A stretch of DNA of 64,000 bases from a phage: assembly GCA_033239445.1 (NCBI GenBank), contig GCA_033239445.1_3953.1. One strand, written 5' to 3'. Shown here piece after piece: positions 13,741 through 26,943 of this stretch. The translations under genes and the position numbers were made by a program. Position 1 is the first letter of the stretch, and every line of letters begins with the position of its first letter. The notes below the pieces were generated by a model. It ran no database searches. It was not told the DNA's origin and saw only the letters and a list, made by a program, of their open reading frames with translations.

Positions 13741-15224
13741 TGAGTAAAATTTACGAAATTTATAATTTTTATAAAATTTGGGATTCACTCCGTTCATCTT
13801 GGGTCACCATGATATGTGATAAAATATCTATACCCTTCTAAACACCCTCTCTAAGCATCATCTCTATATAGTATTATATAGTATTATATAGTATCTATAT
13901 AGCCTCTTAGTCCCTAAATAGTGCTCTCTATATAGCCCTCTATAAAGCCTTCTAAGCCTACCATTAATCAACCCTATACAATCACCTTCCTAACCTCTTC
14001 CTAGCCCCTTAGAAGCCCCTATACTCATCTTAATCTCTAGGTAAACGATAGTACCCTATATAGCAGAATCACTAGGTATTACTAAGCCTCTATATAGACT
14101 GTTATATAGCACTAAACAGGTATTCCCTGTAAAGGCTTATCCTACAAGGTCTAACACGGTACTAACAAGGTCTCTTATAAGCCTGTTAATTCCTGTTTTA
14201 TATAAGATAGTGTATAGATAGTTATTCAGAATTATAAAATTTTTATAAAATAGACTAGGTAGGTTACTTTTTAGGGTCTTTGGAGAATCTGAAAAATATC
14301 TACAGAGGATGTATATCTGCTTGGTAGCCCTTAACAGCCCTGTAACATCCCCTTTGCAAAATCTTAAAATATCATTAACAATCTCTTAACAACTCTTCCA
14401 AGTCCTTAACATCTCTCCAGAGTTCTTAACAGTCTCTTAACAGAACTAACAAGAGCTTAACAAGTCTGTAACATTACTAACAAGAGTCTAACAAGTTGCT
14501 TATAAGTTGCTAAATAGTTAAATCTTAAGAGTTATTTTGTTAAGATAATTAACAAGTTCTAAACCTTTTTAACAAGCTATTAACATGGTCACTATCTCTT
14601 GGTCTATAGTTCCTTATCCTTTCTTAGTGATTCTCTATAAAGCCCTGTATAGCTCTGTATAGCCTCTTCTAAGATTCTCCCTAGTAACTACACCCCAACT
14701 ACCTGTATAGCTCTTTGTAGGGCTTTCTAGGGGCTTATACAGGGACTTCAAAGAGTCTAACAAGCTCTTAACATACCACTAACAAGGATTTAACAAGGGG
14801 CTAACAAGCATAACTATGTTGCATTTGTTAAGATTTTGTTAAGAGAATGTAAAGGGGGCTAACTTTTACGTTACTTTTAAGCTCTTTTTAGACTCCATAA
14901 CATACTTTGAAGTAACTATCAAGCCCCTGTTTAACCATTCACAAGATTCTATCCAGCTTATAAGCTTATACCCTTATAAGATTCTTTTAAGGCTCTAGAA
15001 AGCTCTATAAAGGGTTTTTAAGAAGTGGTTAATATGATTGCTTAAGATGAGATGATAAGCCCGTATAGAGCGTTATAGAGCGTTTTAGGGATTGCCCTTC
15101 CCTTTCGGGTTATGGGCTTATATTTAAGTTGATTTGATAAGAGGATATAGAGTAAGCTATAGAGTTATTATTCTAAATGTATGGGATAGATTCTAGGAAG
15201 GTTTCTTTATAGACGTAAAAAGCC
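13741..15224. repeat. 1.5-kb non-coding region rich in short direct repeats (tattatatag x3, CTGTATAGC copies, about 15 YTAACAAG copies, tatagagcgt x2)
   Basis: No ORF of 60 aa or more on either strand; lies between the 3-prime ends of convergent gene blocks. Confidence 0.6.
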
Positions 15225-15250
15225 CCATCTAAGGGGCTGTAAAGGTGTCT
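15225..15250 (-). terminator. rho-independent terminator (minus strand)
   Basis: On the minus strand agcccc-ttagat-ggggct followed by TTTTTA. Confidence 0.55.
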
Positions 15251-15279: not shown

Positions 15280-15531
15280 TTAGTTATTGAAGCCGTCAAC
15301 TTCATAGTAAAGCGTGATAAGAGAATCACCCCAATAGTAAGAGGATTTACCATCCTTTAAGACTTCTTGTTTTACTTCTTTCCAGAACCACTCAGATTGA
15401 TTGTAGTCCTGAATAGTTGCTTTTAGACACATATCAACCATGCCAAAAACATCGCCAGTTCCAACCATATCAAATTTAACATCTAATACATGGAAGCCAA
15501 AATTGTTAACAGTTGCGTGGATAGTAGCCAT
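15280..15531 (-). CDS. small hypothetical protein (small-gene array)
   Basis: 83 aa; ATG preceded by conserved leader CCTAAACTGGAGAATCTGAAA with SD GGAGA. Confidence 0.55.
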   Translation of the reverse strand: MATIHATVNNFGFHVLDVKFDMVGTGDVFGMVDMCLKATIQDYNQSEWFWKEVKQEVLKDGKSSYYWGDSLITLYYEVDGFNN

Positions 15532-15596
15532 TTTCAGATTCTCCAGTTTAGGAATTTAGGTTAGTGGGGAAGTCTCCCTCCCCGTTGAAAGTAATA
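15532..15596 (-). promoter_or_regulatory. conserved leader cassette, type II (GC-rich hairpin plus shared SD leader)
   Basis: ggggaagtctccctcccc hairpin followed on the minus strand by AACCTAAATTCCTAAACTGGAGAATCTGAAA-ATG. Confidence 0.5.
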
Positions 15597-15860
15597 TTAA
15601 TTCATTGCTGCATAAGTTGCAAGTCTTTTTTCATTGTATTTTGTAAGAATCTCACAAGATAAAACGTCATACTTTGCAACGGCTTCAGATTTAGTTAAAC
15701 CGAAATGGCTTACAATTTCACCATTCATGAATCCGACTACTTCATAAGATTCTGCGATGATTTCACCGTTGAACCAATCACTTTCAATACGTTTGCAAAG
15801 TTGGATATCTTCTTTGTCAGTACCGATTTGTAACAGGATAGTGATTTCTTGATTATTCAT
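15597..15860 (-). CDS. small hypothetical protein (small-gene array)
   Basis: 87 aa; conserved leader upstream. Confidence 0.55.
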   Translation of the reverse strand: MNNQEITILLQIGTDKEDIQLCKRIESDWFNGEIIAESYEVVGFMNGEIVSHFGLTKSEAVAKYDVLSCEILTKYNEKRLATYAAMN

Positions 15861-15920
15861 TTTCTAGTCTCCAGTTTAGGATTGTTGGGGAAGGTCATTC
15901 CCTCCCCGTTGATAAGTACT
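15861..15920 (-). promoter_or_regulatory. conserved leader cassette, type II
   Basis: ggggaaggtcattccctcccc hairpin plus CCTAAACTGGAGA leader. Confidence 0.5.
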
Positions 15921-16448
15921 TTATAGATTTGTGATGATTTCGTCAAGGGAATTTTCTAAGTTTTTTAAAGATTGTTCGTAAAGCCTAATTCCCCTATTTA
16001 ATGCTTCCCCTAACGTAATTTTAAAATTAGTTGTTGGGTAGTCACTTGTAAAGATGTTTTCCACTTCATAGAGTGGGTATTGTTGGTTACCCGTTCCCAT
16101 AGCATACATGCCTGTATAGTGGATTGCAATAAAAAGATTATGGGACTTAATAGAGCGCTCATAAGCCATTTTAAAGCGGTTTAACTCGTTTTTAGTTGCC
16201 TTAATAGCCATTTCGTGAATTTCTGCGACTATAGCCATATAATCATTCAGAATAAGAGAAATAGCCCCCATAAAGTTGTTGGCTGTTACCGCTTTTACAT
16301 TTGGTCGGTGTACATAAAACTTCTTACCTTCCCCTTTTGTGATAACTGCAAAAACTTTGCTCTTTAAGGTAAATTCCCAAGTATCTTTACAAGGCTTGCT
16401 CATCACTTCACGGCTACGGATTGCATTAACAGTATTAAACTTATTCAT
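15921..16448 (-). CDS. hypothetical protein (small-gene array)
   Basis: 175 aa; conserved leader upstream. Confidence 0.6.
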   Translation of the reverse strand: MNKFNTVNAIRSREVMSKPCKDTWEFTLKSKVFAVITKGEGKKFYVHRPNVKAVTANNFMGAISLILNDYMAIVAEIHEMAIKATKNELNRFKMAYERSIKSHNLFIAIHYTGMYAMGTGNQQYPLYEVENIFTSDYPTTNFKITLGEALNRGIRLYEQSLKNLENSLDEIITNL

Positions 16449-16512
16449 TCTAGATTCTCCAGTTTAGGAATTTTGTTTAGTGGGGAAGTCTCCCTCCCCG
16501 TTGATGAATACT
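16449..16512 (-). promoter_or_regulatory. conserved leader cassette, type II
   Basis: ggggaagtctccctcccc hairpin plus CCTAAACTGGAGAATCTAGA leader. Confidence 0.5.
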
Positions 16513-16653
16513 TTACTTGTTTTGATTCTGCATTGCAAGTAGTTTTTTATCAAAAAGTTTATCTGAGATTTCACCAATGATGAGCATTGCTAATGGCAAC
16601 ACAACAGAAACAATCATACCGCAAAGGATAGGGTTTTTAATGATATCTAACAT
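16513..16653 (-). CDS. small hypothetical membrane protein (46 aa)
   Basis: Below ORF-track cutoff; ATG preceded by CCTAAACTGGAGAATCAC leader; C-terminus LAMQNQNK identical to that of 20006-20353. Confidence 0.4.
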   Translation of the reverse strand: MLDIIKNPILCGMIVSVVLPLAMLIIGEISDKLFDKKLLAMQNQNK

Positions 16654-16849
16654 TTAGTGATTCTCCAGTTTAGGAAGTTGCCTTTTGAAGATACTATATA
16701 GATATGATTAGACCTTTGCAAGTACTTTTTACGCTTATCTATAAAGAATCTATTAAGTTAATCCCTTTTAGATAAACCCCCTCGAACAAAGTTACACTTG
16801 TCAAGGGGCATTGTCAATAGTTTTTCAAAAGATTTTTATAAGTTGTTGA

Positions 16850-17191
16850 TTAGCTTATAAAGATTTTTTCTGGCTTAACATAGGTTAATGACTGTTTTTT
16901 AAGCAAATCAGACCAAATGAGCGCGGCAATGTGACTATATCCCTTTTCTCTTAACTCCTGCATAGCTGATTTGCGAGTTTCGAAACGTGTAGCATAGTAT
17001 TCAGTGTTAAGGGTAGTTTTATTCCCTTCATTGTCAACATGTACAATCTGCATCACTTGAAACGGGCTTACATCTTCTCCCCTGTTCCATTGCTCAAAGT
17101 ACTTGAGACACTGCATAGGTTTCATTTTGTCGTTAACTTGGGTAGACCATGACGAATTTTCTTTATCGGTGATAATTGTTACATAGGCCAT
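16850..17191 (-). CDS. hypothetical protein (small-gene array)
   Basis: 113 aa; conserved leader upstream. Confidence 0.55.
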   Translation of the reverse strand: MAYVTIITDKENSSWSTQVNDKMKPMQCLKYFEQWNRGEDVSPFQVMQIVHVDNEGNKTTLNTEYYATRFETRKSAMQELREKGYSHIAALIWSDLLKKQSLTYVKPEKIFIS

Positions 17192-17283
17192 TTTTAGATT
17201 CTCCAGTTTAGGATTGTTGGTAAAGCTCTTTCTCTGGGGCTTAAGATACTAGCTTTTAAACCCCATGTAAAGCACTTTATTAG
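17192..17283 (-). promoter_or_regulatory. conserved promoter/leader cassette, type I (sigma70-like TTTACA-N17-TATCTT inside GGGG/CCCC inverted repeat)
   Basis: Minus strand reads TTTACAtggggtttaaaagctagTATCTTaagcccc ... CCTAAACTGGAGAATCTAAAA-ATG. Confidence 0.55.
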
Positions 17284-17505
17284 TTATTTGTAGTAATAGT
17301 ATGTAAAATCATTTATCAGGCTTCCAGCCTCATCGTTATACTGCTTATGACTAGCCAGATAACCGCCATTAGCTAGAATTTCATCAATCAACTTTTTAGC
17401 GTCATCGTTGGGAATTCTAACAGGGTTATTAAACGGTTGTAAATAGGTACGACGAACATTTGAGAATTTAAAATCAATGGTTTTTACGTTAAGAACTTGC
17501 AACAT
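17284..17505 (-). CDS. small hypothetical protein (small-gene array)
   Basis: ORF-track frame 17284-17583 trimmed: its first 26 codons translate the conserved leader (NNPKLEIQK); true start taken as the ATG after the SD. Confidence 0.5.
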   Translation of the reverse strand: MLQVLNVKTIDFKFSNVRRTYLQPFNNPVRIPNDDAKKLIDEILANGGYLASHKQYNDEAGSLINDFTYYYYK

Positions 17506-17583
17506 TTTTTGAATCTCCAGTTTAGGATTGTTGGGATGTTTCCCGTTGATGAATACTTTACTTTCTTGCGTTTTCAGTGTCAA
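17506..17583 (-). promoter_or_regulatory. conserved leader cassette, type II variant
   Basis: gggatgtttccc hairpin plus CCTAAACTGGAGATTCAAAAA leader. Confidence 0.45.
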
Positions 17584-17814
17584 CTACTTTTCTATAAGAA
17601 TCTCATATTCACCATTCACACTATCAAAGTAAATACCTTCATCATCTTCTGACTTATAGTAACATTGGATATCATCCGATGTTGGGTAGTCTTGCCTTGC
17701 TATCTGACAGGCAACAATAGCATTATTTTCGCTACCTGTAAACTCTTCTAAACCTTTAAAGTCACATTGTGAACCATTGCAGATAGATAAGATAAGATAG
17801 ATTGTTGTAAGCAT
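17584..17814 (-). CDS. small hypothetical protein
   Basis: 76 aa; own RBS, no conserved cassette; hairpin agccccgcacaggggct in its 5-prime region. Confidence 0.5.
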   Translation of the reverse strand: MLTTIYLILSICNGSQCDFKGLEEFTGSENNAIVACQIARQDYPTSDDIQCYYKSEDDEGIYFDSVNGEYEILIEK

Positions 17815-17877
17815 CTTTTAAGCCTCTTGTAAGCCCCTGTGCGGGGCTTTTCTAGTGAACTGGCATGATTCTATGGT

Positions 17878-18435
17878 TTATGCTGTTAATTCGTTTATAG
17901 CCGTTTCTGCTACGTTACATTGCATTGTGTCAAAGATATCACAATATACATTGCTCATCTCATCACTACGTTGGACTATTGCCGCAATGTTGCGTAATTC
18001 ATCCGGTATATAACCCAAGTTCCTATTATTCAGGTTAGGGACAAAGAAAGGCGCATACATAGCATTAAATTCAGTTGTGTAAACCTTTTTAATCCATTCT
18101 TTATCGAAATATTCTGTAAAGCTTGCTACGTCGCTCATGTTCTCACAGCTCCAGTCATCTTGTAAATCATCTTCTGGAATATCCAGTTCCAAGATAACAA
18201 GCTTTTGTGACTTCATTTGATAGGCTGCTGTAATGCTTGCGCTATCAAGCGCGTTTCTAATACCTTCATCTGTGATTTGTTCGTCATCCAGATTCTCTAC
18301 ATCATAGAACTTGTTAACAGGGTAGACGTAAAAACATCCATCCATATCAGAGCAATTCCAGACTCCTGATGGTTTATCACCGCCATTGATAAGGTTTACG
18401 AAGTTTTCTTGTGTAGTACCGTGGAAGCATTTCAT
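17878..18435 (-). CDS. hypothetical protein (small-gene array)
   Basis: 185 aa; conserved leader upstream. Confidence 0.6.
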   Translation of the reverse strand: MKCFHGTTQENFVNLINGGDKPSGVWNCSDMDGCFYVYPVNKFYDVENLDDEQITDEGIRNALDSASITAAYQMKSQKLVILELDIPEDDLQDDWSCENMSDVASFTEYFDKEWIKKVYTTEFNAMYAPFFVPNLNNRNLGYIPDELRNIAAIVQRSDEMSNVYCDIFDTMQCNVAETAINELTA

Positions 18436-18519
18436 TTTAGATTCTCCAGTTTAGGATTGTTGGTAAAGCTCTTTATCTGGGGCTTATCTTATCTAACTAT
18501 AAACCCCATGTAAAGGACT
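18436..18519 (-). promoter_or_regulatory. conserved promoter/leader cassette, type I (TTTACA-N17-TAAGAT)
   Basis: -35 TTTACA is the complement of 18509-18514, -10 TAAGAT the complement of 18486-18491, 17-nt spacer; followed by CCTAAACTGGAGAATCTAAA-ATG. Confidence 0.6.
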
Positions 18520-18768
18520 TTATTTAGTTTTCTTTGTAAAGATTAGTTTAACGGCAACAGTTGGTAACTCTTCAATACTTGTGAACAAAGTCACTTTTTG
18601 AGTCTTAACATTATAGCCATACTTTGAACCATAAGCCGTAAAACGGTTTACAATGTAACTGTAAGTTTTTGCAGTGTTATCTGGCATATGATATAAAAAC
18701 GGCTTGCCAAGGTTATCAAATTGTGTTAAGAGTCGGCAAGTGTCAGGGATATTCAACATATTAAACAT
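18520..18768 (-). CDS. small hypothetical protein (small-gene array)
   Basis: 82 aa; conserved leader upstream. Confidence 0.55.
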   Translation of the reverse strand: MFNMLNIPDTCRLLTQFDNLGKPFLYHMPDNTAKTYSYIVNRFTAYGSKYGYNVKTQKVTLFTSIEELPTVAVKLIFTKKTK

Positions 18769-18855
18769 TTTCAGATTCTCCAGTTTAGGATTGATTTAGT
18801 AAAGCTCTTTATCTGGGGCTATCTTATCAACTTGATAACCCCATGTAAAGCACTT
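18769..18855 (-). promoter_or_regulatory. conserved promoter/leader cassette, type I
   Basis: Minus strand TTTACAtggggttatcaagttgaTAAGATagcccc plus shared leader. Confidence 0.6.
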
Positions 18856-19104
18856 TTAGATGTTTTTATAACCTGCCGATGTGCATAAACCTTTTACAAG
18901 TTCAAAAGTCCATAATAAATCTTTGTATTCTATTTGAATCTCAGTTACAAGGTCTGTTTTTCGTTCGTTAGTTTTGAAATTCACTGTATACGTGTACTCA
19001 AAATCGAAATTACTTTTTATTTCCCCATACCGTCTACATTCTTTGTATACATCATCGAGAAAACCATTTTTCATCATACTTTTGAGTTGTGTTTTTGTTT
19101 TCAT
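18856..19104 (-). CDS. small hypothetical protein (small-gene array)
   Basis: ORF-track frame 18856-19176 trimmed; upstream 24 codons translate the conserved leader. Confidence 0.5.
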   Translation of the reverse strand: MKTKTQLKSMMKNGFLDDVYKECRRYGEIKSNFDFEYTYTVNFKTNERKTDLVTEIQIEYKDLLWTFELVKGLCTSAGYKNI

Positions 19105-19176
19105 CTTTTGAATCTCCAGTTTAGGGTTGTTTCGTTGTCTGATGAGTACTTTACTACTATGCTTTTGCAGTGTCAA
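19105..19176 (-). promoter_or_regulatory. conserved leader cassette, degenerate type II
   Basis: CCCTAAACTGGAGATTCAAAAG leader present; upstream part diverged. Confidence 0.4.
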
Positions 19177-19584
19177 TCAAATTTCTGAATAAATTGCGTC
19201 ACAAATTTCACGGAAAATCTCTTTTGAAAGATTACGCTGTAACCATGTTGCAAAGAAATCAGCAATTGCAAAGTTTGCATCAAAATCAACACATAGCCAC
19301 ACTTTAACAGCAAATCTAAACATTTTCAAGTCAAGTTCTTTATTCATTACTTTTGACTTTGACAGCATTTCCTTCATCTCATATTGAGCACCGTCAATTA
19401 TAGCTCCTGCTGCTACATCTTGCAAGGATTCTTTAAGCTGTTTTGTGTCTACTACTGCGCCCTGAATTTTACCGATGATATTATGTAGTGTTTCGTCTGG
19501 TGCTGCTGATGTTACAATGTTGATGCGGTTAATGGTCAAACGTGCTTTCAAAATTGCAACTTCTTTGTGATTAACATTAGTCAT
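19177..19584 (-). CDS. hypothetical protein (small-gene array)
   Basis: 135 aa; conserved leader upstream. Confidence 0.6.
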   Translation of the reverse strand: MTNVNHKEVAILKARLTINRINIVTSAAPDETLHNIIGKIQGAVVDTKQLKESLQDVAAGAIIDGAQYEMKEMLSKSKVMNKELDLKMFRFAVKVWLCVDFDANFAIADFFATWLQRNLSKEIFREICDAIYSEI

Positions 19585-19673
19585 TTTCTAGTCTCCAGTT
19601 TAGGTTAGTTTTAGATAAATCTCTTTATCTGGGGCTATCTTAGCAACTTGATAACCCCATGTAAAGCAATTTA
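19585..19673 (-). promoter_or_regulatory. conserved promoter/leader cassette, type I
   Basis: Minus strand TTTACAtggggttatcaagttgcTAAGATagcccc plus leader. Confidence 0.6.
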
Positions 19674-19946
19674 TTAGACTAAATACAATTTTTTACCACT
19701 AACAATAATGTAACTTACGCCGCTATTACTGTAAACATCTTGATAAATTCTGCGTAACTTTCCAAGGTATCGAACTTTCCAAGATGTAGGAATTTTCTTT
19801 CCATATCCTGTGGCGGTTTTTTGTAAACCTGCTACTTGCCAATCTAATAGGTGCTGTTCTGCTCTTAACTCTTCAAAGTTTAATACACCGTCTATATAGT
19901 GTTTTAAAGTTACGTTCAAAGTTCGACCGTCATTAGTAGTATACAT
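19674..19946 (-). CDS. small hypothetical protein (small-gene array)
   Basis: 90 aa; conserved leader upstream. Confidence 0.55.
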   Translation of the reverse strand: MYTTNDGRTLNVTLKHYIDGVLNFEELRAEQHLLDWQVAGLQKTATGYGKKIPTSWKVRYLGKLRRIYQDVYSNSGVSYIIVSGKKLYLV

Positions 19947-20005
19947 TTTCAGATTCTCCAGTTTAGGATTGTTGGGGCTTCTATCTTGCCCCGTTGATGA
20001 ATACT
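19947..20005 (-). promoter_or_regulatory. conserved leader cassette, type II
   Basis: ggggcttctatcttgcccc hairpin plus CCTAAACTGGAGAATCTGAAA leader. Confidence 0.5.
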
Positions 20006-20353
20006 TTACTTGTTTTGATTCTGCATTGCAAGCTCTTTTTTATTAATTTCTTGCGCTATCACGATATAATAATCTTTCAGGTTTATATCTTGAATTGACT
20101 CAAGAAGTATGTCATAATCACTGATTAATTTAAAATCACCGTCTAGGATGTTATCAATCCGGTATGTTTCTGCTTTGAATCGAAAGCTCATCTCTAAGCG
20201 TTTCAATTGTTCTAAGCTTAAACGCTCTAGAAAGCCCCGTACAAGGTTTATTTTTAAATCCCTTGTAAGTGCCTTATTAGCTATACTGTGCGCTTGTAAG
20301 GCTTTATAGAGCGCCACAATAGAGATAAAAATTGCAACGTATGTGATTAACAT
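20006..20353 (-). CDS. hypothetical membrane protein
   Basis: 115 aa; N-terminal hydrophobic helix; second gene of a two-gene unit with 20347-20643. Confidence 0.5.
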   Translation of the reverse strand: MLITYVAIFISIVALYKALQAHSIANKALTRDLKINLVRGFLERLSLEQLKRLEMSFRFKAETYRIDNILDGDFKLISDYDILLESIQDINLKDYYIVIAQEINKKELAMQNQNK

Positions 20354-20643
20354 TTGTTTTTACCTTTGTGGAATAGTTTACCAGTGTGACTAATTTCATA
20401 TGAATCAACCATATCTCTAGTGGTCTTAATCGATGACTTATTAGTGTTATCATAGATATCAACCTGAAGCAATGGTTTTTTGTATTCTTTACAAAAGTTC
20501 CATACACAAATTATTACTTCCTTTTTGTTAATCTTTCCATGATACCACTCTACGGCTTCAGATGTACGGCGCATAGATTCAATGAATTGGATATTACTTA
20601 ATAGCTGGCTTAATTTAGTTCTAACGTTTGCGGCAATAAACAT
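20347..20643 (-). CDS. small hypothetical protein (small-gene array)
   Basis: 98 aa; conserved leader upstream. Confidence 0.55.
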   Translation of the reverse strand: MFIAANVRTKLSQLLSNIQFIESMRRTSEAVEWYHGKINKKEVIICVWNFCKEYKKPLLQVDIYDNTNKSSIKTTRDMVDSYEISHTGKLFHKGKNKC

Positions 20644-20727
20644 TTTAGATTCTCCAGTTTAGGATTGTTTGTAAAGCTCTTTATCTGGGGCTATCTTATC
20701 AACTTGATAACCCCATGTAAAGCACTT
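20644..20727 (-). promoter_or_regulatory. conserved promoter/leader cassette, type I
   Basis: Same TTTACA-N17-TAAGAT core inside GGGG/CCCC repeat plus leader. Confidence 0.6.
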
Positions 20728-21240
20728 TTAGATATTAAAGATATTCATAACAGAATCTTTCAAGGCTTCTAAACGTTCCATTACTTCAGATTCTCCATCG
20801 GAGTTCGACACTTCCTCTTCTAATCGTGAATCTAAATCTTCCCCGTCAAGATAGCACCAATCGAAGCCATAAGCAAGAGAAAAGCTATTTAATACTGTAT
20901 TACCTTCTTTATCTTCTACCTTTGCAAATAGCACGTAGCTGTTAGCCTCTAAATCTCTTTGTAATTCATCTTGTAAGCTCTTGTAAGCCTCTATAGATGG
21001 ATTTTCGCGGCCTTGTTTAGCATAATCACTCATCAATTGTGAAAGGCTGTAATGCTGTGGAATTGCATATTTGTACCCGTTACGCTCTGGATTTTTAAGT
21101 TTGATTGTAACCCCGCCTTTGTGCTCATCGGTAAACTTCCAATTCTCCACACAATGGGATGCTTCACAAATATTAACAGCTTCATAGATGATAGTGAATT
21201 TTTCTTTTTGGACTTCAAAGGTAGCTTCAACAAAATTCAT
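20728..21240 (-). CDS. hypothetical protein (small-gene array)
   Basis: 170 aa; conserved leader upstream. Confidence 0.6.
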   Translation of the reverse strand: MNFVEATFEVQKEKFTIIYEAVNICEASHCVENWKFTDEHKGGVTIKLKNPERNGYKYAIPQHYSLSQLMSDYAKQGRENPSIEAYKSLQDELQRDLEANSYVLFAKVEDKEGNTVLNSFSLAYGFDWCYLDGEDLDSRLEEEVSNSDGESEVMERLEALKDSVMNIFNI

Positions 21241-21331
21241 TTTAGATTCTCCAGTTTAGGACTATTGGTTAGTAAAGCTCTTTATCTGGGGCTTATATTA
21301 TCTAACTATAAACCCCATGTAAAGCACTTTA
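21241..21331 (-). promoter_or_regulatory. conserved promoter/leader cassette, type I (TTTACA-N17-TAATAT)
   Basis: Minus strand TTTACAtggggtttatagttagaTAATATaagcccc plus leader. Confidence 0.6.
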
Positions 21332-21589
21332 TCAGATTAAATTGTCAGTTAATGATAAGTGCATTTTATAACCTTTCTTCGTGTAGACGTTAGTTCTACC
21401 GATTGCTTTTACACCTTTGAAAAGGTCATAGGAACTACGTTTTAAAGTAATTTCCTTATCACATTTTACGCCCCATCTTACAGCAGATTCTTTTCCGTTG
21501 TCAACCACTTTACCATTTAGTTTTTTAGCAGTTGCGCGAGCGTCATCACGAGATTTTGCAGATACAATGATGTTTTTGATAGTAGCCAT
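21332..21589 (-). CDS. small hypothetical protein (small-gene array)
   Basis: 85 aa; conserved leader upstream. Confidence 0.55.
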   Translation of the reverse strand: MATIKNIIVSAKSRDDARATAKKLNGKVVDNGKESAVRWGVKCDKEITLKRSSYDLFKGVKAIGRTNVYTKKGYKMHLSLTDNLI

Positions 21590-21680
21590 TTTTGATACTC
21601 CAGTTTAGGTTATTGTTTGGTAAAGCTCTTTATCTGGGGCTTATCTTATCTAACTATAAACCCCATGTAAAGGACTTTAT
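21590..21680 (-). promoter_or_regulatory. conserved promoter/leader cassette, type I
   Basis: TTTACA-N17-TAAGAT core plus CCTAAACTGGAGTATCAAAA leader. Confidence 0.6.
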
Positions 21681-22061
21681 TTAGTTAATTTTGAAAACTG
21701 TAACGTAGCCGTCACTACCAATAGTTTGAGATACTCCAGCTTTCTCTACATCATACCCCATTTTATCAAGATGGTACATTGCATCTTCATACCCATATTT
21801 ACCGCCTTGATAGCGTCTTTTTTCACAGCGTATCACAGTTTTACCACGTCCTGCAATAGCATTTATTATAGCTTTTTCACCGGATAGTGTACCGTCAAGC
21901 ATAGTAGCTTTGTAGTGGTTAATACGGTTACCATTAACATCATACTTAAAATTGTAAGCGTGAACAACAATTATTTTTCCTTTGAAGTTTTCTTTCATAG
22001 TTTCCTCTAAGATACTACGAAAGTTTTCTTTGTTGATAAATTTAGGCGCACGATATTTCAT
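21681..22061 (-). CDS. hypothetical protein (small-gene array)
   Basis: 126 aa; conserved leader upstream. Confidence 0.6.
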   Translation of the reverse strand: MKYRAPKFINKENFRSILEETMKENFKGKIIVVHAYNFKYDVNGNRINHYKATMLDGTLSGEKAIINAIAGRGKTVIRCEKRRYQGGKYGYEDAMYHLDKMGYDVEKAGVSQTIGSDGYVTVFKIN

Positions 22062-22145
22062 TTTAGATTCTCCAGTTTAGGATTGTTGGTAAAGCTCTTT
22101 ATCTGGGGCTTAAGATACTAGCTTTTAAACCCCATGTAAAGCACT
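22062..22145 (-). promoter_or_regulatory. conserved promoter/leader cassette, type I
   Basis: TTTACA-N17-TATCTT core plus leader. Confidence 0.55.
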
Positions 22146-22352
22146 TTAAACGTTATAATAATAAATTGCTGTATGCCTTGTAAACTGTCTTGTATGAGTT
22201 GTCAAATAACAATCAGACCTGATTGACGTATCAACATATTCATCAAAATCCTTTTCTGAGATACGTTGCCAAACATCACAAATTAGCATATAGAAACGAC
22301 GTTTATTTGTTTTGTTGTTGTCAACAATCATTAACTCACGTTGATATAACAT
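22146..22352 (-). CDS. small hypothetical protein (first gene of the array)
   Basis: 68 aa; conserved leader upstream. Confidence 0.5.
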   Translation of the reverse strand: MLYQRELMIVDNNKTNKRRFYMLICDVWQRISEKDFDEYVDTSIRSDCYLTTHTRQFTRHTAIYYYNV

Positions 22353-22410
22353 TTTTAGATTCTCCAGTTTAGGATTGTTGGGATGTTTCCCGTTGATGCA
22401 AATACTATAA
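22353..22410 (-). promoter_or_regulatory. conserved leader cassette, type II variant
   Basis: gggatgtttccc hairpin plus CCTAAACTGGAGAATCTAAAA leader. Confidence 0.45.
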
Positions 22411-22603
22411 GACTGGATTTATGAAGTCAACAAAATTTTTAAAAATATTTTCGATGCTTCGTGAATAGAACGCACGTATGCGAATACACTAAAACAGAAA
22501 TCTAGTCAAGAATTATTTTTCAGTTCTCTACAAATTTTTAGCTTGACTTTTAGGAGGAAGGGGAGTAAGAGGGGATGGTGGGTCTGGCTTCCTACAGCTA
22601 CCT

Positions 22604-22815
22604 GCCTGCACAATTTGAAAATGAATTTTCCCTTTGGAGTCCAACTGCATCTGCACAAATTGAAAATGAAAAAGCTCTTTGGAGTCTAGACCTGCACGTT
22701 TTGAAAATGAATTTTCCCTTTGGAGTCCAGCTAAAGAAATCTGTCCAGAGTTCTACAAAATAATACCTGCACAAATTTGAAATGAAAAAGCCCCCCTTAC
22801 CTGAGATTTAAAACT
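22604..22815. repeat. four imperfect tandem direct repeats of about 45 bp
   Basis: Units at about 22604, 22644, 22690 and 22774 share CTGCACAA(A)TTTGAAAATGAA ... CTTTGGAGTC; non-coding region between the small-gene array and the macro-domain gene. Confidence 0.6.
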
Positions 22816-22856: not shown

Positions 22857-23651
22857 TTAGTTACGTGCTTCAACATAGTTTACGTCTTCATGTGTGATAT
22901 AATATTCTGCAAACTCTTCTGTAGTCGCATTGATATACACACTTGCATCATCACCAAACGTTACCGCTCTGTGGTAGTGGCCCTGTAACGGGTGGGTAAC
23001 TTGAGCGTTACTTTGATTGTACTTCTCAACCGGAGGGTAACTGGTGTGTACCTTGCCATTACGCTTCACCTTGAGGGTAACTTTATCCTTGCCTACCACA
23101 GCAACACCATCAAAGTATTGAGGCTCACTGAAGTTCTCCCAACCAGTAACAGGACTAGTCAACTGACTGTACATCTTATCTTCATAGACATACATATATA
23201 CGTCAACATCTTTCATGGTCTGATTAATAATGGACAGCACAGCCATACTATCAAGACCACCAATCCCTGCACCAATCATAGGGAGTCCAACCTTCTTAAG
23301 CTGGTTTACTTTACAGTAGTTGTTAAGACGCTGTAAAGCTGCTTCTAAGGCATTGTATCGTGCATTTTTTCCAGTGATAACCTGAGTATAAAGGTTAGCA
23401 ATTCGACCCTGCTTCAAACGTGCTACAGAGATGTTACCAAGCATTAGATGCTTAGGGTTATGGTTTTCACCACCTACTGTAGCATAAACTTCAGCGTCAG
23501 TTTCATAAGCTTTTGGGTAGCGTTTAGCAATTGTTGCTGCGATACCTGCACCCATCAAGTTCATGCAGTTACAACCGTGACCAATGATATCAAACTTCTT
23601 ACCATCAAAGTCTTTAAAGATATCACCTTTAATAATTTTTACGATACCCAT
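22857..23651 (-). CDS. macro-domain protein (putative ADP-ribose binding or hydrolase) with C-terminal extension
   Basis: N-terminal KGDIF ... DIIGHGCNCMNLMGAGIAATIAKRYP resembles the macro-domain core; start trimmed to ATG at 23651, which overlaps the upstream stop. Confidence 0.5.
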   Translation of the reverse strand: MGIVKIIKGDIFKDFDGKKFDIIGHGCNCMNLMGAGIAATIAKRYPKAYETDAEVYATVGGENHNPKHLMLGNISVARLKQGRIANLYTQVITGKNARYNALEAALQRLNNYCKVNQLKKVGLPMIGAGIGGLDSMAVLSIINQTMKDVDVYMYVYEDKMYSQLTSPVTGWENFSEPQYFDGVAVVGKDKVTLKVKRNGKVHTSYPPVEKYNQSNAQVTHPLQGHYHRAVTFGDDASVYINATTEEFAEYYITHEDVNYVEARN

Positions 23652-23652
23652 A

Positions 23653-23853
23653 TTAGTAATGCTCCCAACGTTCGTTATCTTCAGATGGTTTAACTCGGTT
23701 ACCTTCATGGTCTACCCATAGAGCACCGCAACCTTCACAGATTACTGGCATTGCTGAACCAGCTTCAAATTCTGCCTTTGTAAAGAGACCTTTTAAGTCT
23801 CCTGTATCTTTTCCAAACATCTCAACAGAACACTTAGTGCAGAAATCAGCCAT
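23653..23853 (-). CDS. small zinc-ribbon-like protein
   Basis: 66 aa with CxxC ... CxxC (CTKCS, CEGCG). Confidence 0.45.
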   Translation of the reverse strand: MADFCTKCSVEMFGKDTGDLKGLFTKAEFEAGSAMPVICEGCGALWVDHEGNRVKPSEDNERWEHY

Positions 23854-25697: not shown

Positions 25698-26393
25698 TCA
25701 GTTTTTAACAAGCATTGTTTTGATGTGTGGTAAGATTCTTTCAACCTTCTCCACGTTCTTCACTGTATCTTCTATAAAGCATACTACATCATAGTAAGGT
25801 AGAATGCAAGACTGAAGCATACGAACTTTCAAACTTTCTGCACTAATCTCATTGTCACCAAATCCACGCATAAACAGTAGGAAATCACTGTCTACATTCT
25901 CATTCAGGAAAAGATGTGTGACAACTCTTTGTGATTCACCACGAGCAGTTAAGAATCCTATATCAGCATTTCTTGATATACCACACAGAATGTTAAAAAC
26001 ATATGTTGGTTTAGCTCTGCGAGAGTCTACCAAGTTAGTATACTGTGAGTAAGTACCATCATCTAACAAAGTTGCATTAAGTTTCTTGTCAAAGCTTGTA
26101 AGAACACCATCAATGTCTGCTAAGACCATTTTACGTTTTTCTTCCAAGTTCTTTGCAACCAAGATAAGGCTGTTACGACCAACATATACAGCTTTACCTG
26201 TTAGCAAATCCTGACAAGGAATCTGTGTCTTTGTTGAGTGGAAGTCTTCAAAGCTACACACAACATTTCTTGCTGTATCTGCAAAGTCAGCTTTAGCAAT
26301 ATCTGACCAACTTGCAGAACTGATATCTAAATCAAGTGGCTTGATATCATAAGCATGACACAGAACCATGTCAAATTGTTTTGATTCGCTCAT
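25698..26393 (-). CDS. HAD-superfamily phosphatase-like protein (possible nucleotidase)
   Basis: 231 aa; motif I-like LADIDGVL (DxDG). Confidence 0.4.
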   Translation of the reverse strand: MSESKQFDMVLCHAYDIKPLDLDISSASWSDIAKADFADTARNVVCSFEDFHSTKTQIPCQDLLTGKAVYVGRNSLILVAKNLEEKRKMVLADIDGVLTSFDKKLNATLLDDGTYSQYTNLVDSRRAKPTYVFNILCGISRNADIGFLTARGESQRVVTHLFLNENVDSDFLLFMRGFGDNEISAESLKVRMLQSCILPYYDVVCFIEDTVKNVEKVERILPHIKTMLVKN

Positions 26394-26943
26394 ATTTTAC
26401 CTTTTTAATGTTTGTTGCAAACTCACATTGAGCCAGCAGTTTCATGTTATTGTACACATCTTGAGAGTATTGTCTAGCCTTTGGAATCTTGTATTTGTAA
26501 CCAGCATTATAAGAAGCTAGGACACGCTTCATAGAGTACTTTCCATCTGGGTTACCATGAACCTTAGTCCAGAATAATAGCTCTTTATGAGCCTCTTTCG
26601 CTGAGTAATGGAAGTCACTTACTAACTTCTTCTTAGCAACCTTTGGAGATACCTTGTTACGCTTTACAACAGTCTTCAAGTGATTCTGGAAAACACCATA
26701 ATCATGAGTCTTTTTATTTTCTAACATGACACCTAATTGTGACTCTTGTAAGGCTATAGCTGCTAAAGGGATTCCCCAACCTTTCCCCATCTGCCCTTCG
26801 CCATAGTTATATGCTTTTAACATATTAACTTTCTGGCTGATTGTAAGCTCTGGACAGTCAGATGCTGTAGCTAAATGTGCTGTAAAGAATAAGCACAAAC
26901 CTAAAACAAATTTCTTCATTTGCACTCCTATTTTGTTAAACAT
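26371..26943 (-). CDS. secreted lytic-transglycosylase-like (SLT domain) protein
   Basis: 190 aa; N-terminal signal peptide; ALQESQLG ... DYGVFQNH resembles the SLT catalytic E-S and D-x-G-x-x-Q signature. Confidence 0.45.
   Translation of the reverse strand: MFNKIGVQMKKFVLGLCLFFTAHLATASDCPELTISQKVNMLKAYNYGEGQMGKGWGIPLAAIALQESQLGVMLENKKTHDYGVFQNHLKTVVKRNKVSPKVAKKKLVSDFHYSAKEAHKELLFWTKVHGNPDGKYSMKRVLASYNAGYKYKIPKARQYSQDVYNNMKLLAQCEFATNIKKVKYERIKTI

Follow-up and report, generated by a model that had tools for sequence, protein, structure and literature searches.

The DNA analysed here, a stretch of 64,000 nucleotides referred to as the window, comes from a Mooglevirus (Ounavirinae, Felix O1-like), and its core (30-50 kb) is 97.8% identical, with 100% coverage, to phages 3HA14 and Sf13-Sf19. 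Unlike this core, the variable early-gene array at 15280-22440 on the minus strand, composed of 18 small genes and 16 regulatory cassettes, is covered in the same relatives only to about 50%. Intergenic cassette sequence constitutes 20% of the array, and all ten array proteins tested matched PHROG families of unknown function. Scanning of the window revealed 16 copies of the leader CCTAAACTGGAG(A), against 1.5 expected, all of them on the minus strand and inside the array. Just beyond the last gene lies a terminator-like hairpin with a T-run (15221-15238, minus strand), which was the sole canonical minus-strand site of this kind detected for the array in a terminator scan; Moogle, Mordin and Michonne each have a terminator annotated at the corresponding position.

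The cassettes are built, from 5' to 3', of an A+T-rich tract, a sigma70-type promoter with 17-bp spacing, a G4/C4-clamped stem-loop and an invariant leader, AACAAT-CCTAAACTGGAG-N7-9-ATG. The 20 nt upstream of the promoters contain on average 78% A+T, against 65% array-wide. A -35/-10 pair separated by exactly 17 bp was found in 16 of 16 cassettes, with 8-10 of the 12 consensus positions matched. Eight cassettes (class I) have TTTACA-N17-TAAGAT/TAATAT/TATCTT placed inside a long stem-loop; the example at 18436-18519 (minus strand), where TTTACA-N17-TAAGAT lies in a stem-loop of about 50 nt followed by the leader, was found 1,457 times across 288 phage records. The other eight (class II) have TTGACA/TTGCAA/TTGACG/TTGACT-N17-TAAAGT/TAATAT/TAGTAT/TATAGT, and six of these bear a short hairpin beginning about 11 nt after the -10 hexamer. 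A promoter scan of 8 kb gave 41 promoter-like sites, with 28 expected. A single match thus carries little weight, and the argument for promoters draws on a pattern that is repeated and positionally fixed. On this basis we infer that the cassette promoters are probably active, of the host sigma70 type, with transcription starting about 7-8 nt after the -10.

Two minus-strand genes of the array run into such promoters. The 46-aa ORF at 16513-16653 encodes a predicted small membrane protein (phrog_7482 over residues 1-46 of 46), whose homologues bear the annotation putative membrane protein; together with its cassette it is absent from Moogle, HP1, SUSP2 and wV8. The 115-aa ORF at 20006-20353 has a hydrophobic N-terminus, and its first 7 nt lie within the upstream gene (20347-20643). 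Both end with LAMQNQNK and a stop codon, as the earlier note had stated. Pairwise alignment showed that 16496-16539 (copy A) and 19989-20032 (copy B), 3.5 kb apart on the minus strand, are identical in register over 44 nt, that is, the 24 nt of the eight codons, TAA and 17 nt beyond the stop; when extended out to 16553/20046, the identity is 54/58. The 21-mer AGTAAAGTATTCATCAACGGG occurs three times, with none expected. Copy A thus contains the promoter of the 175-aa gene and the final eight codons and stop of the 46-aa ORF, and copy B the promoter of the 90-aa gene (19674-19946) and the corresponding end of the 115-aa ORF.

The identity sets in precisely at the -35 hexamer belonging to the promoter of the following gene, and it takes in the stop codon, which forms the first half of the -10 hexamer. 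In A, the -35 TTGCAA (16533-16538) encodes L-A of the tail and is followed after 17 bp by the -10 TAAAGT (16510-16515), with 16513-16515 being the stop of the 46-aa ORF; in B, the scored -35 TTGCAA lies at 20026-20031 and the -10 TAAAGT at 20003-20008, with 20006-20008 as the stop of the 115-aa ORF. These hexamers are imperfect, A and B each matching 8 of 12 positions, where A was scored at the site homologous to B and not at the automatic pick. The TAA of a -10 is the stop of four upstream genes (16513, 20006 and 15921 within TAAAGT, 15597 within TAATAT). Beyond 17 nt past the stop the copies diverge, with hairpin GGGGAGGGAGACTTCCCC in A (16482-16499) and GGGGCAAGATAGAAGCCCC in B (19974-19992), and converge again at the leader CCTAAACTGGAGAATCT, which with its ribosome-binding site occupies 16456-16468 in A (CCTAAACTGGAGA, then ATG 16446-16448) and 19955-19967 in B (then ATG 19944-19946). 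The previously described identity of the downstream sequence therefore holds for the first 17 nt and is lost from there to the leader. The term "module duplication" was an overstatement, since no gene is duplicated: comparison of repeats in the window revealed no coding sequence common to the two ORFs beyond the eight codons, and the shared part is only about 44 nt of promoter. The earlier reading had not recognised the shared codons as promoter.

We regard it as probable that LAMQNQNK is a translated promoter. Under tight gene packing, the promoter of gene n+1 would overlap the 3' end of gene n, and the two ORFs would read through the -35 TTGCAA and the spacer to end at the TAA of the -10 TAAAGT; because the promoter copies are identical, unrelated genes would share their last eight codons. 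The earlier note's proposal that the cassette includes the final codons of the gene before it holds, in view of the span of the identity, from the downstream -35 through the stop, and of the lineage-specific nature of the tail.

Several other explanations of the shared sequence may be considered. Chance or misassembly (for instance a collapsed or chimeric repeat) has a negligible probability. Assemblies are known to go wrong at repeats, and the Sf17 and Sf18 records carry odd deletions exactly within these cassettes, which could be assembly errors; however, the longest exact repeat in 20 shuffled versions of the window reached 14-17 nt, against 44 nt observed, and the same arrangement is present in the independently sequenced 3HA14, Sf13, KPS64, Mordin and Michonne. 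The alignment of the two junctions, proposed in the earlier note, bears out the shared sequence. It is also very unlikely that protein selection has kept LAMQNQNK as a functional C-terminal peptide, for instance as a signal for sorting, interaction or degradation, its resemblance to a promoter being incidental. Although both ORFs combine a hydrophobic membrane-like segment with a charged, polar tail that is retained in several phages, the same DNA is non-coding, with the -35/17 bp/-10 geometry intact, in six others. In Silverhawkium, KMM4, HP1, SUSP2 and mistaenkt, TTGCAA-N17-TAAAGT/TAAATT lies 3' of the 115-aa homologue, which has a stop codon of its own 1-17 nt before the -35, and wV8, which lacks the 46-aa gene, has the A-type promoter (TTGCAAaggcaaatcaaaacaagTATAGT) between genes. 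The conserved block extends 17 nt beyond the stop, and the differences within the tail (M/I, Q/K, MQ/KA) all change amino acids. Most 115-aa homologues lack the tail: the match of the 115-aa ORF to the 110-position profile of phrog_4375 covers residues 1-110 only, leaving the final five outside, the LAMQNQNK-type tail of this family was confined to the Sf13/SUSP1 group in the protein alignment, and homologues in Silverhawkium, KMM4 and Felixounavirus phages end with QEINKRK(K/NS/QNS/QNC). The Sf17 record, if correct, has both genes without the tail. Judged from these comparisons, the promoter predates its overlap with coding sequence and the tail is not conserved as protein, though once translated it may since have gained a function.

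A single ancient duplication of the gene end and cassette, inherited vertically since then without ongoing exchange, is a less remote yet still improbable alternative. It would agree with the promoter subtype of A and B being absent from the other 14 cassettes and being old, as it is present in wV8 too. However, over 43 nt A and B have no mismatches within the window, 3HA14, Sf13 and Silverhawkium, and one within KPS64, Mordin and Michonne, whereas orthologous copies of A or B differ between lineages by 3-6 nt; the distance matrix favours grouping by genome, and three distinct A=B haplotypes exist (TGCAGAAT, TAAAGAAT and AGGCAAAT). A differs from B in KMM4 and in mistaenkt, the 13 nt of difference in the latter looking like the unconverted state. 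Moreover, the flanks immediately upstream of the -35 keep their A-type or B-type identity throughout the compared genomes, the older C-terminus of the 115-aa family differs from LAMQNQNK, and the sharing of coding sequence stops at the eight codons. The greater similarity of paralogues than of orthologues points to gene conversion between two of the 16 cassette copies, which appears to explain the A/B identity better than one old duplication, and such conversion would keep A and B identical. Exchange of whole blocks between phages could partly cause the identity within genomes.

The same repeat-mediated homologous recombination would insert, delete and duplicate gene-plus-cassette modules. In comparison with five relatives, 18 of 20 indel endpoints fell in cassettes (binomial P 1e-10, the endpoints being not fully independent), and scars were found in KPS64 (cassette A and the gene tail duplicated in tandem), Michonne (the leader-ATG fused to CTTTACATGGGG beside a duplicated 258-nt gene) and Mordin (a double class I cassette that is chimeric). 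In any phage, recombinants with broken genes would be lost to selection, so that breakpoints are expected to lie at gene boundaries; cassette-mediated homologous recombination nevertheless seems the most economical reading of them.

Cassettes also affect the calling of gene starts. The mechanical ORFs 17284-17583 (99 aa) and 18856-19176 (106 aa), both with TTG starts, contain NNPKLEIQK directly before an internal methionine, and the earlier note had considered their N-terminal extensions false, predicting that automated calls would go wrong. The false TTG of both is that of the -35 TTGACA, from which the frame, as it happens, meets no stop in the leader before the ATG. The 26 extra codons of the first correspond to a class II cassette at 17506-17583 (-35 at 17578-17583, -10 TAAAGT at 17555-17560, hairpin GGGAAACAUCCC, leader 17514-17526), and the 24 of the second to one at 19105-19176 (-35 at 19171-19176, -10 TAAAGT at 19148-19153, no hairpin, leader 19113-19125), all on the minus strand. 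That the long forms are real TTG-initiated proteins is highly improbable. The window, 3HA14, Sf13 and Sf18 do have these frames open, and GenBank carries the first gene in its 300-nt form as Sf13_gp45 and Sf18_gp83, but also in the 222-nt form as KPS64_gp114, 3HA14_1090, Mordin_113, Michonne117 and Sf17_gp133, so the predicted confusion has occurred. The TTG lacks a ribosome-binding site and would fall upstream of the predicted transcript start, whereas a GGAG ribosome-binding site precedes the internal ATGs by 8-9 nt. The homologues of the 73-aa gene in KPS64, Sf17, Mordin and Michonne have no start codon in frame upstream; in Mordin and Michonne this gene stands behind a class I cassette, and in wV8 (gene 23) the upstream frame is closed after six codons. 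PHROG profiles of 73 and 82 positions match the short forms end to end. On this sequence evidence, the extended forms are artefacts and the genes start at the inner ATGs, giving 17284-17505 (73 aa, ATG 17503-17505, phrog_10118 over 1-73 of 73) and 18856-19104 (82 aa, ATG 19102-19104), the module of the latter being missing from five of six close relatives examined.

The stem-loops of the two classes may differ in role. The hairpin of cassette A (GGGGAGGGAGACUUCCCC, 16482-16499) begins 11 nt 3' of the -10 and would stand at the very 5' end of the predicted transcript, and that of B (GGGGCAAGAUAGAAGCCCC, 19974-19992) has the same position and a different sequence. The whole 64-nt cassette A (16449-16512) folds with an MFE of -16.5 kcal/mol (z -1.5) and the whole 59-nt cassette B (19947-20005) with -12.8 kcal/mol (z -1.8), the hairpin, of 7 bp in A, being retained in both centroid structures. 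Class I folding is stronger (-22 to -26 kcal/mol, z -3.0 to -4.4; for 18436-18519, -21.9 kcal/mol and z -3.0). The class I stem persists in 49 distinct copies, among which one pair is compensatory (GC<->UA) and two change from wobble to Watson-Crick; this covariation is thin and the counts are not independent, the copies being related by descent and conversion. We infer that class II hairpins may act as 5'-terminal mRNA stabilisers and class I stem-loops as attenuators of read-through transcription. It is possible, if doubtful, that the cassettes are instead mainly terminator/promoter junctions, whose stem-loops stop or attenuate upstream transcription and insulate genes, with no role in mRNA stabilisation. 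Class I stem-loops are strong and would be confined to read-through RNA, because the predicted start is 3' of them, and in the T4-type phage RB49 one PeSL stem-loop was shown to lower the expression of a downstream lacZ to about the same extent as rrnB T1 (PMC2839356). On the other hand, none of the array hairpins examined is followed by a U-run, the only canonical minus-strand terminator is that at the array end, two class II cassettes (16674 and 19125) have no hairpin, and the remaining class II hairpins sit 3' of their own -10 and within 2-3 nt of the predicted 5' end, a position more in keeping with a 5' stabiliser.

The closest analogue of the cassette is the PeSL cassette of T4-like phages. 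The studies of Felix O1 and wV8 list these repeats without interpretation, and in Felix O1 the ORFs 16, 20 and 21, located downstream of equivalent repeats, have their expression peak at 5 min. In the explanation we favour, and hold as a whole to be likely, nearly every gene of the array would be its own unit of transcription and translation, supplied by a cassette of 60-100 nt. A protein tail shared through promoter copies would then be a tidy and fairly ordinary piece of phage biology.

The 46-aa ORF (16513-16653) and the 115-aa ORF (20006-20353), both on the minus strand, terminate in the same peptide, LAMQNQNK, placed directly before the stop codon, as the earlier note had claimed and as is evident from the ORF listing. 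When the two ends were compared in register, 16496-16539 (copy A of the repeat) and 19989-20032 (copy B) proved identical at 44 of 44 nucleotides, a run composed of 17 nt past the stop, the TAA and eight codons; extension of the match to 16553 and 20046 gave 54 identical positions out of 58. A coincidental short match could be ruled out, since in 20 shuffles of the window the longest exact repeat was at most 17 nt, as compared with 44. The further claim, that the sequence downstream of both genes is identical, holds up to CAACGGGG and again at the leader, but not between these points, where the hairpins at 16482-16499 and 19974-19992 differ. As had also been proposed, the cassette supplies the last codons of the upstream gene. 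On the minus strand the tail reads C-TTGCAA-TGCAGAATCAAAACAAG-TAAAGT, so that LAMQNQNK and its stop correspond to the -35 box, the 17-bp spacer and the opening three bases of the -10 box of the next predicted promoter, which serves the 175-aa gene behind the 46-aa ORF and the 90-aa gene (19674-19946) behind the 115-aa ORF. A stop codon within the -10 box occurs in two more genes, at 15921-16448 (TAAAGT after TTGACG) and 15597-15860 (TAATAT after TTGCAA). The shared gene ends are non-random and had been read correctly. We propose that the shared end is a putative promoter which is translated as a gene end and held identical by gene conversion, and that it is the Ounavirinae counterpart of the promoter-early stem-loop (PeSL) cassette.

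The window derives from a Mooglevirus (Ounavirinae, Felix O1-like). Its 30-50 kb part is fully covered, at 97.8% identity, in Escherichia phage 3HA14 and Shigella phages Sf13-Sf19; only about 50% of the 16-21.5 kb part is covered in the same phages, which assigns the shared ends to a variable block of small genes. All genes of this array (15.3-22.4 kb) lie on the minus strand, and 10 of 10 tested proteins match PHROG families of unknown function.

The array is marked by a 13-mer leader, CCTAAACTGGAGA, present in 15 exact copies and one copy with a single mismatch, against 1.5 expected; all 16 are on the minus strand, at 15540-22373, within 7 kb. On the basis of the 95 nt upstream of each leader copy, two classes of minus-strand cassette, eight copies each, were defined. 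Class I has the form (T)AAAGTGC-TTTACA-N17-TAAGAT, TAATAT or TATCTT, followed by AGATAAAGAGCTTTACC, AACAAT and the leader. In class II, the promoter is TTGACA, TTGCAA, TTGACG or TTGACT-N17-TAAAGT, TAATAT, TAGTAT or TATAGT, and after the -10 box come about 10 nt, a G4...C4 hairpin (missing in two of the eight), AACAAT and the leader. The pair of hexamers is spaced by exactly 17 bp in each of the 16 cassettes and agrees with the consensus at 8-10 of 12 positions, a consensus match by which these promoters are predicted; cassette A was scored at the site homologous to B, in place of a tied alternative, TTGATA/CAGAAT, that automatic scoring had chosen. Over the 20 nt preceding each of the 16 -35 boxes the mean A+T content is 78% (range 70-95%), compared with 65% for the array, and in every cassette the leader ends with CTGGAG, followed after 7-9 nt by ATG.

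Class I cassettes fold into a stem-loop of about 50 nt around the -35 and -10 boxes (-22 to -26 kcal/mol, z from -3.0 to -4.4). The stem is preserved in 49 distinct copies from 15 phages; covariation among these non-independent copies is thin, amounting to one G-C/U-A switch and two changes from wobble to Watson-Crick pairs. The TAAAGT at the 5' edge of class I, considered as a second -10 box, was rejected on inspection, as a conserved -35 box 16-18 bp upstream is missing; this motif forms part of the lower stem. A MotA-type middle promoter, considered because the class I TGCTTTA resembles the T4 Mot box, was rejected too. For the hairpin-bearing class II copies, the fold of the entire cassette has -10 to -18 kcal/mol (z from -1.1 to -2.7), and their hairpin starts 11 nt after the -10 box, that is 2-3 nt from the expected transcription start. 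A terminator scan of the minus strand found no T-run after the cassette hairpins, which thus lack this mark of an intrinsic (Rho-independent) terminator; the sole canonical terminator-like site on that strand lies at 15221-15238, just beyond the last gene of the array. Scanning of 13.5-23.5 kb against Rfam 15 revealed no known family, with one miRNA match at chance level (E 0.38; 22.7 bits, the gathering threshold being 80 bits).

Several other sites in and around the array were noticed. Between the plus-strand block and the array end there are about 1.4 kb of non-coding DNA (13860-15220), containing many short repeats with 10-11 bp periodicity (TATATAGTAT, CTTAACA..., CTCTGTATAG). No CDS is annotated in the equivalent region of the KPS64, 3HA14, Sf13, Moogle and Mordin records; the 570-bp terminal repeat_region of HP1 lies near it, and the KMM4 and mistaenkt records begin there. 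The stretch is possibly the genome terminus or packaging region, or else a replication origin. At the other side, a unit of 41-45 nt (CCTGCACAATTTGAAAATGAATTTTCCCTTTGGAGTCCA...) is repeated in tandem about three times at 22605-22729, and also occurs at 22767-22791, within the gap of about 500 nt from a macro-domain gene (22857-23708) to the first promoter of the array; small plus-strand ORFs are inconsistently annotated there (KPS64_gp126, Sf13_gp58, Moogle115), and the units could be iterons or an operator array. The spacer upstream of the 46-aa gene is unusually long (16654-16849, 196 nt) and bears tandem TTGACA motifs within a long inverted repeat (TTGACAATGCCCCTTGACAAGTGTAACTTTGTTCGAGGGGG); conservation of this spacer extends to wV8 (L015 3677-3897). 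The array's only intergenic spacer with neither the common leader nor an obvious promoter, 17815-17877, contains a GC hairpin (AAGCCCCGCACAGGGGCUU), and the gene that follows at 17584-17814 has a ribosome-binding site of its own there, AGAGG. Outside the array, exact direct repeats of at least 30 nt occur as the pairs 7062/7314 and 57509/59043.

Identity of the two protein ends might be ascribed to selection acting on the peptide; comparison with relatives argues against this. In the alignment of the 115-aa family, the ELAM(Q/K)NQNK tail is confined to the Sf13/SUSP1 group; homologues from Silverhawkium, KMM4 and Felixounavirus phages end with QEINKRK(K/NS/QNS/QNC/NSS), and the PHROG profile of this protein ends at residue 110. 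In Silverhawkium, KMM4, HP1, SUSP2 and mistaenkt the homologue has its own stop, 1-17 nt upstream of the -35 box, and the promoter is intergenic, with the 17-bp geometry kept and the spacer variable. A comparable situation exists for the other copy: in wV8, an A-type promoter (TTGCAAaggcaaatcaaaacaagTATAGT) lies in a non-coding spacer before the 175-aa homologue, and the 46-aa gene is missing, as it also is from Moogle, HP1 and SUSP2; the endpoints of its deletion relative to the window, 16482 and 16659, are both in leaders. Moreover, the differences between phages within the tail (M/I, Q/K, MQ/KA) all change the amino acid. A tail limited to one lineage, a promoter that is intergenic elsewhere and exclusively amino-acid-changing differences speak together against selection on LAMQNQNK. 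The search with the 46-aa protein returned just two near-identical clusters, too little depth for evolutionary analysis. As a separate matter, the 115-aa homologues HP1_126 (L012) and that of ESCO49 (P0009) are labelled 'tail tube protein', which for a small membrane-like early protein is almost certainly a propagated misannotation.

What keeps the two copies alike is indicated by comparison of A with B over 43 nt, from the -35 box to 14 nt past the -10 box. Within one genome, A and B differ at no position in the window, 3HA14, Sf13 and Silverhawkium, and at one position in KPS64, Mordin and Michonne; between the lineages of these phages, orthologous A copies, or orthologous B copies, differ at 3-6 positions. 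At greater distance, copy B of the window has 8 mismatches to that of HP1 and 13 to that of SUSP2, and A and B within mistaenkt differ at 13 positions. Three haplotypes with A equal to B were found, their spacers starting with TGCAGAAT, TAAAGAAT and AGGCAAAT, and in all of them the 14 nt upstream of the -35 box are specific to the locus (tgataaaaaactac for A, taataaaaaagagc for B). Such a pattern is the signature of what we take to be gene conversion between repeats 3.5 kb apart. The converted tract would run from the -35 box to the hairpin foot in the window, and onward through the hairpin in Mordin and Silverhawkium. In the most economical history, the lineage of Sf13, Mordin and Moogle acquired a copy of the A-type promoter in place of its B promoter; this would have taken away the stop of the 115-aa gene, the ORF then running on to the TAA of the -10 box. 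An exact-pattern scan of IMG/VR with the 29-nt A/B promoter returned the Sf13 genome only.

The cassettes also account for apparent gene starts. The earlier note regarded the N-terminal extensions of the ORFs at 17284-17583 and 18856-19176 as false, and this is borne out by the starts of homologues and by PHROG profiles, according to which the true genes are 17284-17505 (73 aa) and 18856-19104 (82 aa). Both long, TTG-started ORFs were found by mechanical ORF calling. In the corresponding cassettes, 17506-17583 and 19105-19176, the upstream stop (TAG or TGA) lies directly before TTGACA, and an open frame, TTG-ACA-CTG..., crosses hairpin and leader (AAC AAT CCT AAA CTG GAG ATT CAA AAA/AAG ATG); because the frame happens to stay open, mechanical calls begin at the -35 box. 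No in-frame upstream start is available to the 73-aa homologues of KPS64, Sf17, Mordin and Michonne, the upstream frame of wV8 gene 23 is closed after six codons, and the PHROG profiles correspond in length to the short forms. GenBank calls are split: Sf13_gp45 and Sf18_gp83 are given as 300 nt, and five other records have 222 nt. Sf18_gp78 is likewise annotated from the TTG of a -35 box, TTGCAA.

Differences between close relatives concentrate at the cassettes. Comparison by blastn of 14-24 kb with KPS64, 3HA14, Sf13, Mordin and Moogle revealed ten indel events, and 18 of their 20 endpoints fall in intergenic cassettes, whose share of the array is 20% (binomial P 1e-10, an overstated value, because selection against broken genes adds to the pattern). 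The 82-aa gene with its cassette (18793-19140) is missing from all five of these phages; among Moogleviruses it was found in Sf18 only, where it is 100% identical; elsewhere, Felixounavirus and Hafnia phages and one record labelled Listeria phage have it at 61-70% identity, which suggests that the module has been exchanged between genera or kept in few lineages. Sf13 and 3HA14 have an extra gene, flanked by a class I cassette on either side, where the window has a single cassette (17192-17282, which aligns twice). In KPS64, a tandem duplication comprises cassette A and the 3' end of the 46-aa gene; in Michonne, a 258-nt gene is duplicated, with the leader-ATG fused to CTTTACATGGGG at the junction; and Mordin bears a double, chimeric class I cassette. 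The 73-aa gene is preceded by a class II cassette in the window and by a class I cassette in Mordin and Michonne.

Short deletions lying exactly within cassettes were observed in the records of Sf17 (L011, at 927, 1909 and 4238) and Sf18 (L016, 3126-3160), with fused or extended annotated ORFs as a result. Those in Sf17 remove the -10 box from both A and B (Sf17_gp127 is annotated at 375 nt), and that in Sf18 takes out everything from the hairpin to the seventh nucleotide of the downstream gene's start, Sf18_gp78 with its TTG start being the affected call. Such deletions are either genuine, with the repeats as mediators, or errors of assembly at repeats.

The closest known parallel is provided by the PeSLs, described as 'mobile regulatory cassettes' of the T4-like phages RB49/phi1, T4/PST and KVP40/nt-1 (Arbiol et al. 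2010, PMC2839356; Comeau et al. 2014, PMC4122927). Like PeSLs, the Ounavirinae cassettes are about 100 bp long and intergenic, with a tract rich in A+T, an early promoter (here a predicted one) of sigma70 type spaced by N17, and a Shine-Dalgarno sequence and ATG; they are grouped in variable regions beside genes of unknown function, and differences between close relatives have their junctions in them. Class I comes near the T4/PST consensus, TTTACW-N17-TAYWAT, and also possesses the PeSL stem-loop, formed by a G-run and a C-run between -35 and -10 or over the -10 box; class II presents only a variant of it, with the hairpin after the -10 box and two copies without any. Unlike PeSLs, the cassettes described here have an invariant leader of 12-13 nt, a second class with the hairpin downstream of the -10 box, and promoters overlapping the upstream coding sequence, with the -10 box providing the stop codon. 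They also belong to another subfamily; the likeness is one of architecture and is known here from sequence alone, whereas promoter activity, terminator or attenuator activity of the stem-loop and packaged mini-circles, which arise when neighbouring cassettes recombine, have been shown experimentally for PeSLs. Six architectural and comparative traits of PeSLs were recovered and the range of T4-like myoviruses was not, for which reason we regard the cassettes as an analogue in another subfamily, not as a relative. Morons of lambdoid phages are similar in that one small accessory gene with its own promoter is present or absent between collinear relatives (PMC2839356). They have their own promoter and terminator, their flanks are not conserved repeats, and their insertion is thought to be illegitimate (PMC2839356); here, in contrast, the flanks are 16 near-identical cassettes of one orientation, and the junctions lie inside them.

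Class I cassettes were found at 1,457 places in 288 phage records, Erwinia phages included, and judging by organism names and by the taxonomy of 16 records these all appear to be Ounavirinae. As repeats, the elements have been noted before: among the 'direct repeats' of Felix O1 (Whichard et al. 2010, PMC3185647), the 57-bp CTTTACATGGGGCTTAAAAGTCTGTAAAGTAAGCCCCAGATAAAGAGCTTTACCACT is class I and the 39-bp TTGACACTGGTTTTTAGATAGATTAAATTACACATCAAC is class II. The same elements appear as features DR_1-DR_9 in the wV8 record, and the 14-nt repeat_region of Mordin is the leader. The putative promoters given in the Felix O1 paper are five others, and the organisation of transcription is called unknown (PMC3185647); the repeats are recorded there as repeats only, with no tie to promoters, hairpins, gene shuffling, shared ends or mis-called starts, and the wV8 paper makes no mention of DR_1-DR_9. 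Our literature search on early promoters, transcriptomes and PeSL-like elements of Felix O1 and Ounavirinae yielded nothing beyond lists of repeats, and no paper was found that relates them to promoters, to PeSLs, to shared gene ends or to wrongly called starts.

In the proposed mechanism, host RNA polymerase would start about 7-8 nt after each -10 box. At 2-3 nt from their 5' end, class II transcripts would then have a hairpin, which by analogy may shield them from RNase E. A stem-loop very near the 5' end is the geometry required against 5'-end-dependent attack by this enzyme, and a 5'-terminal stem-loop in the ompA 5' UTR was reportedly described as an mRNA stabiliser by Emory, Bouvet and Belasco in 1992. 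The resemblance to this stabiliser stands or falls with the predicted start site, and the hairpin that it requires is missing from two class II cassettes. Class I transcripts would begin just 3' of the large stem-loop, which would form only in RNA derived from upstream and could act there as an attenuator of transcription or as a mark for processing. From the invariant leader, every gene would receive one common ribosome-binding region, and the 60-100 bp or so of common sequence would allow homologous recombination, by which modules are added, removed, duplicated and converted. The sole expression data found are for Felix O1, in which ORFs 16, 20 and 21, located downstream of equivalent repeats, peak at 5 min by RT-PCR.

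A separate question is why the leader is so constant. By analogy with T4 RegB/RegA, a phage factor may jointly shut off early genes through the GGAG that the leader contains; as the Mordin_137 homologue has no RegB match in Pfam, we leave this as speculation. Mordin_137 itself is annotated as 'similar to T4 endoribonuclease RegB'; its homologue in the window (26371-26943) has a signal-peptide-like N-terminus and only a sub-threshold Pfam match to SLT transglycosylase, and the RegB label looks doubtful.

In practical terms, the cassettes explain why gene calls disagree among dozens of deposited Felix O1-like and Moogle-like genomes, several of them from candidates for phage therapy or biocontrol. 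The errors include 300 versus 222 nt for the same gene, TTG starts at -35 boxes and ORFs fused across deleted cassettes, and a simple annotation rule follows, namely that the start is the ATG 7-9 nt after CTGGAG. On a small scale, the locus neatly illustrates how regulatory repeats evolve in concert, and how a predicted promoter can be read as the C-terminal end of two unrelated proteins. A broader reading, which we consider improbable, covers about 290 Ounavirinae genomes with some five class I copies each: the cassettes might form a subfamily-wide system of recombination and expression that, in addition to shuffling genes, homogenises its own copies through gene conversion and writes promoter-derived tails, and occasionally heads, onto neighbouring small proteins. 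If true, regulatory DNA would in this way become part of coding sequence. Current views are not overturned by these results, which offer a testable transcription map for this phage group. With them, the idea developed for PeSLs, of cassettes that both drive and shuffle accessory genes, would reach from T4-like phages to an unrelated subfamily of myoviruses.
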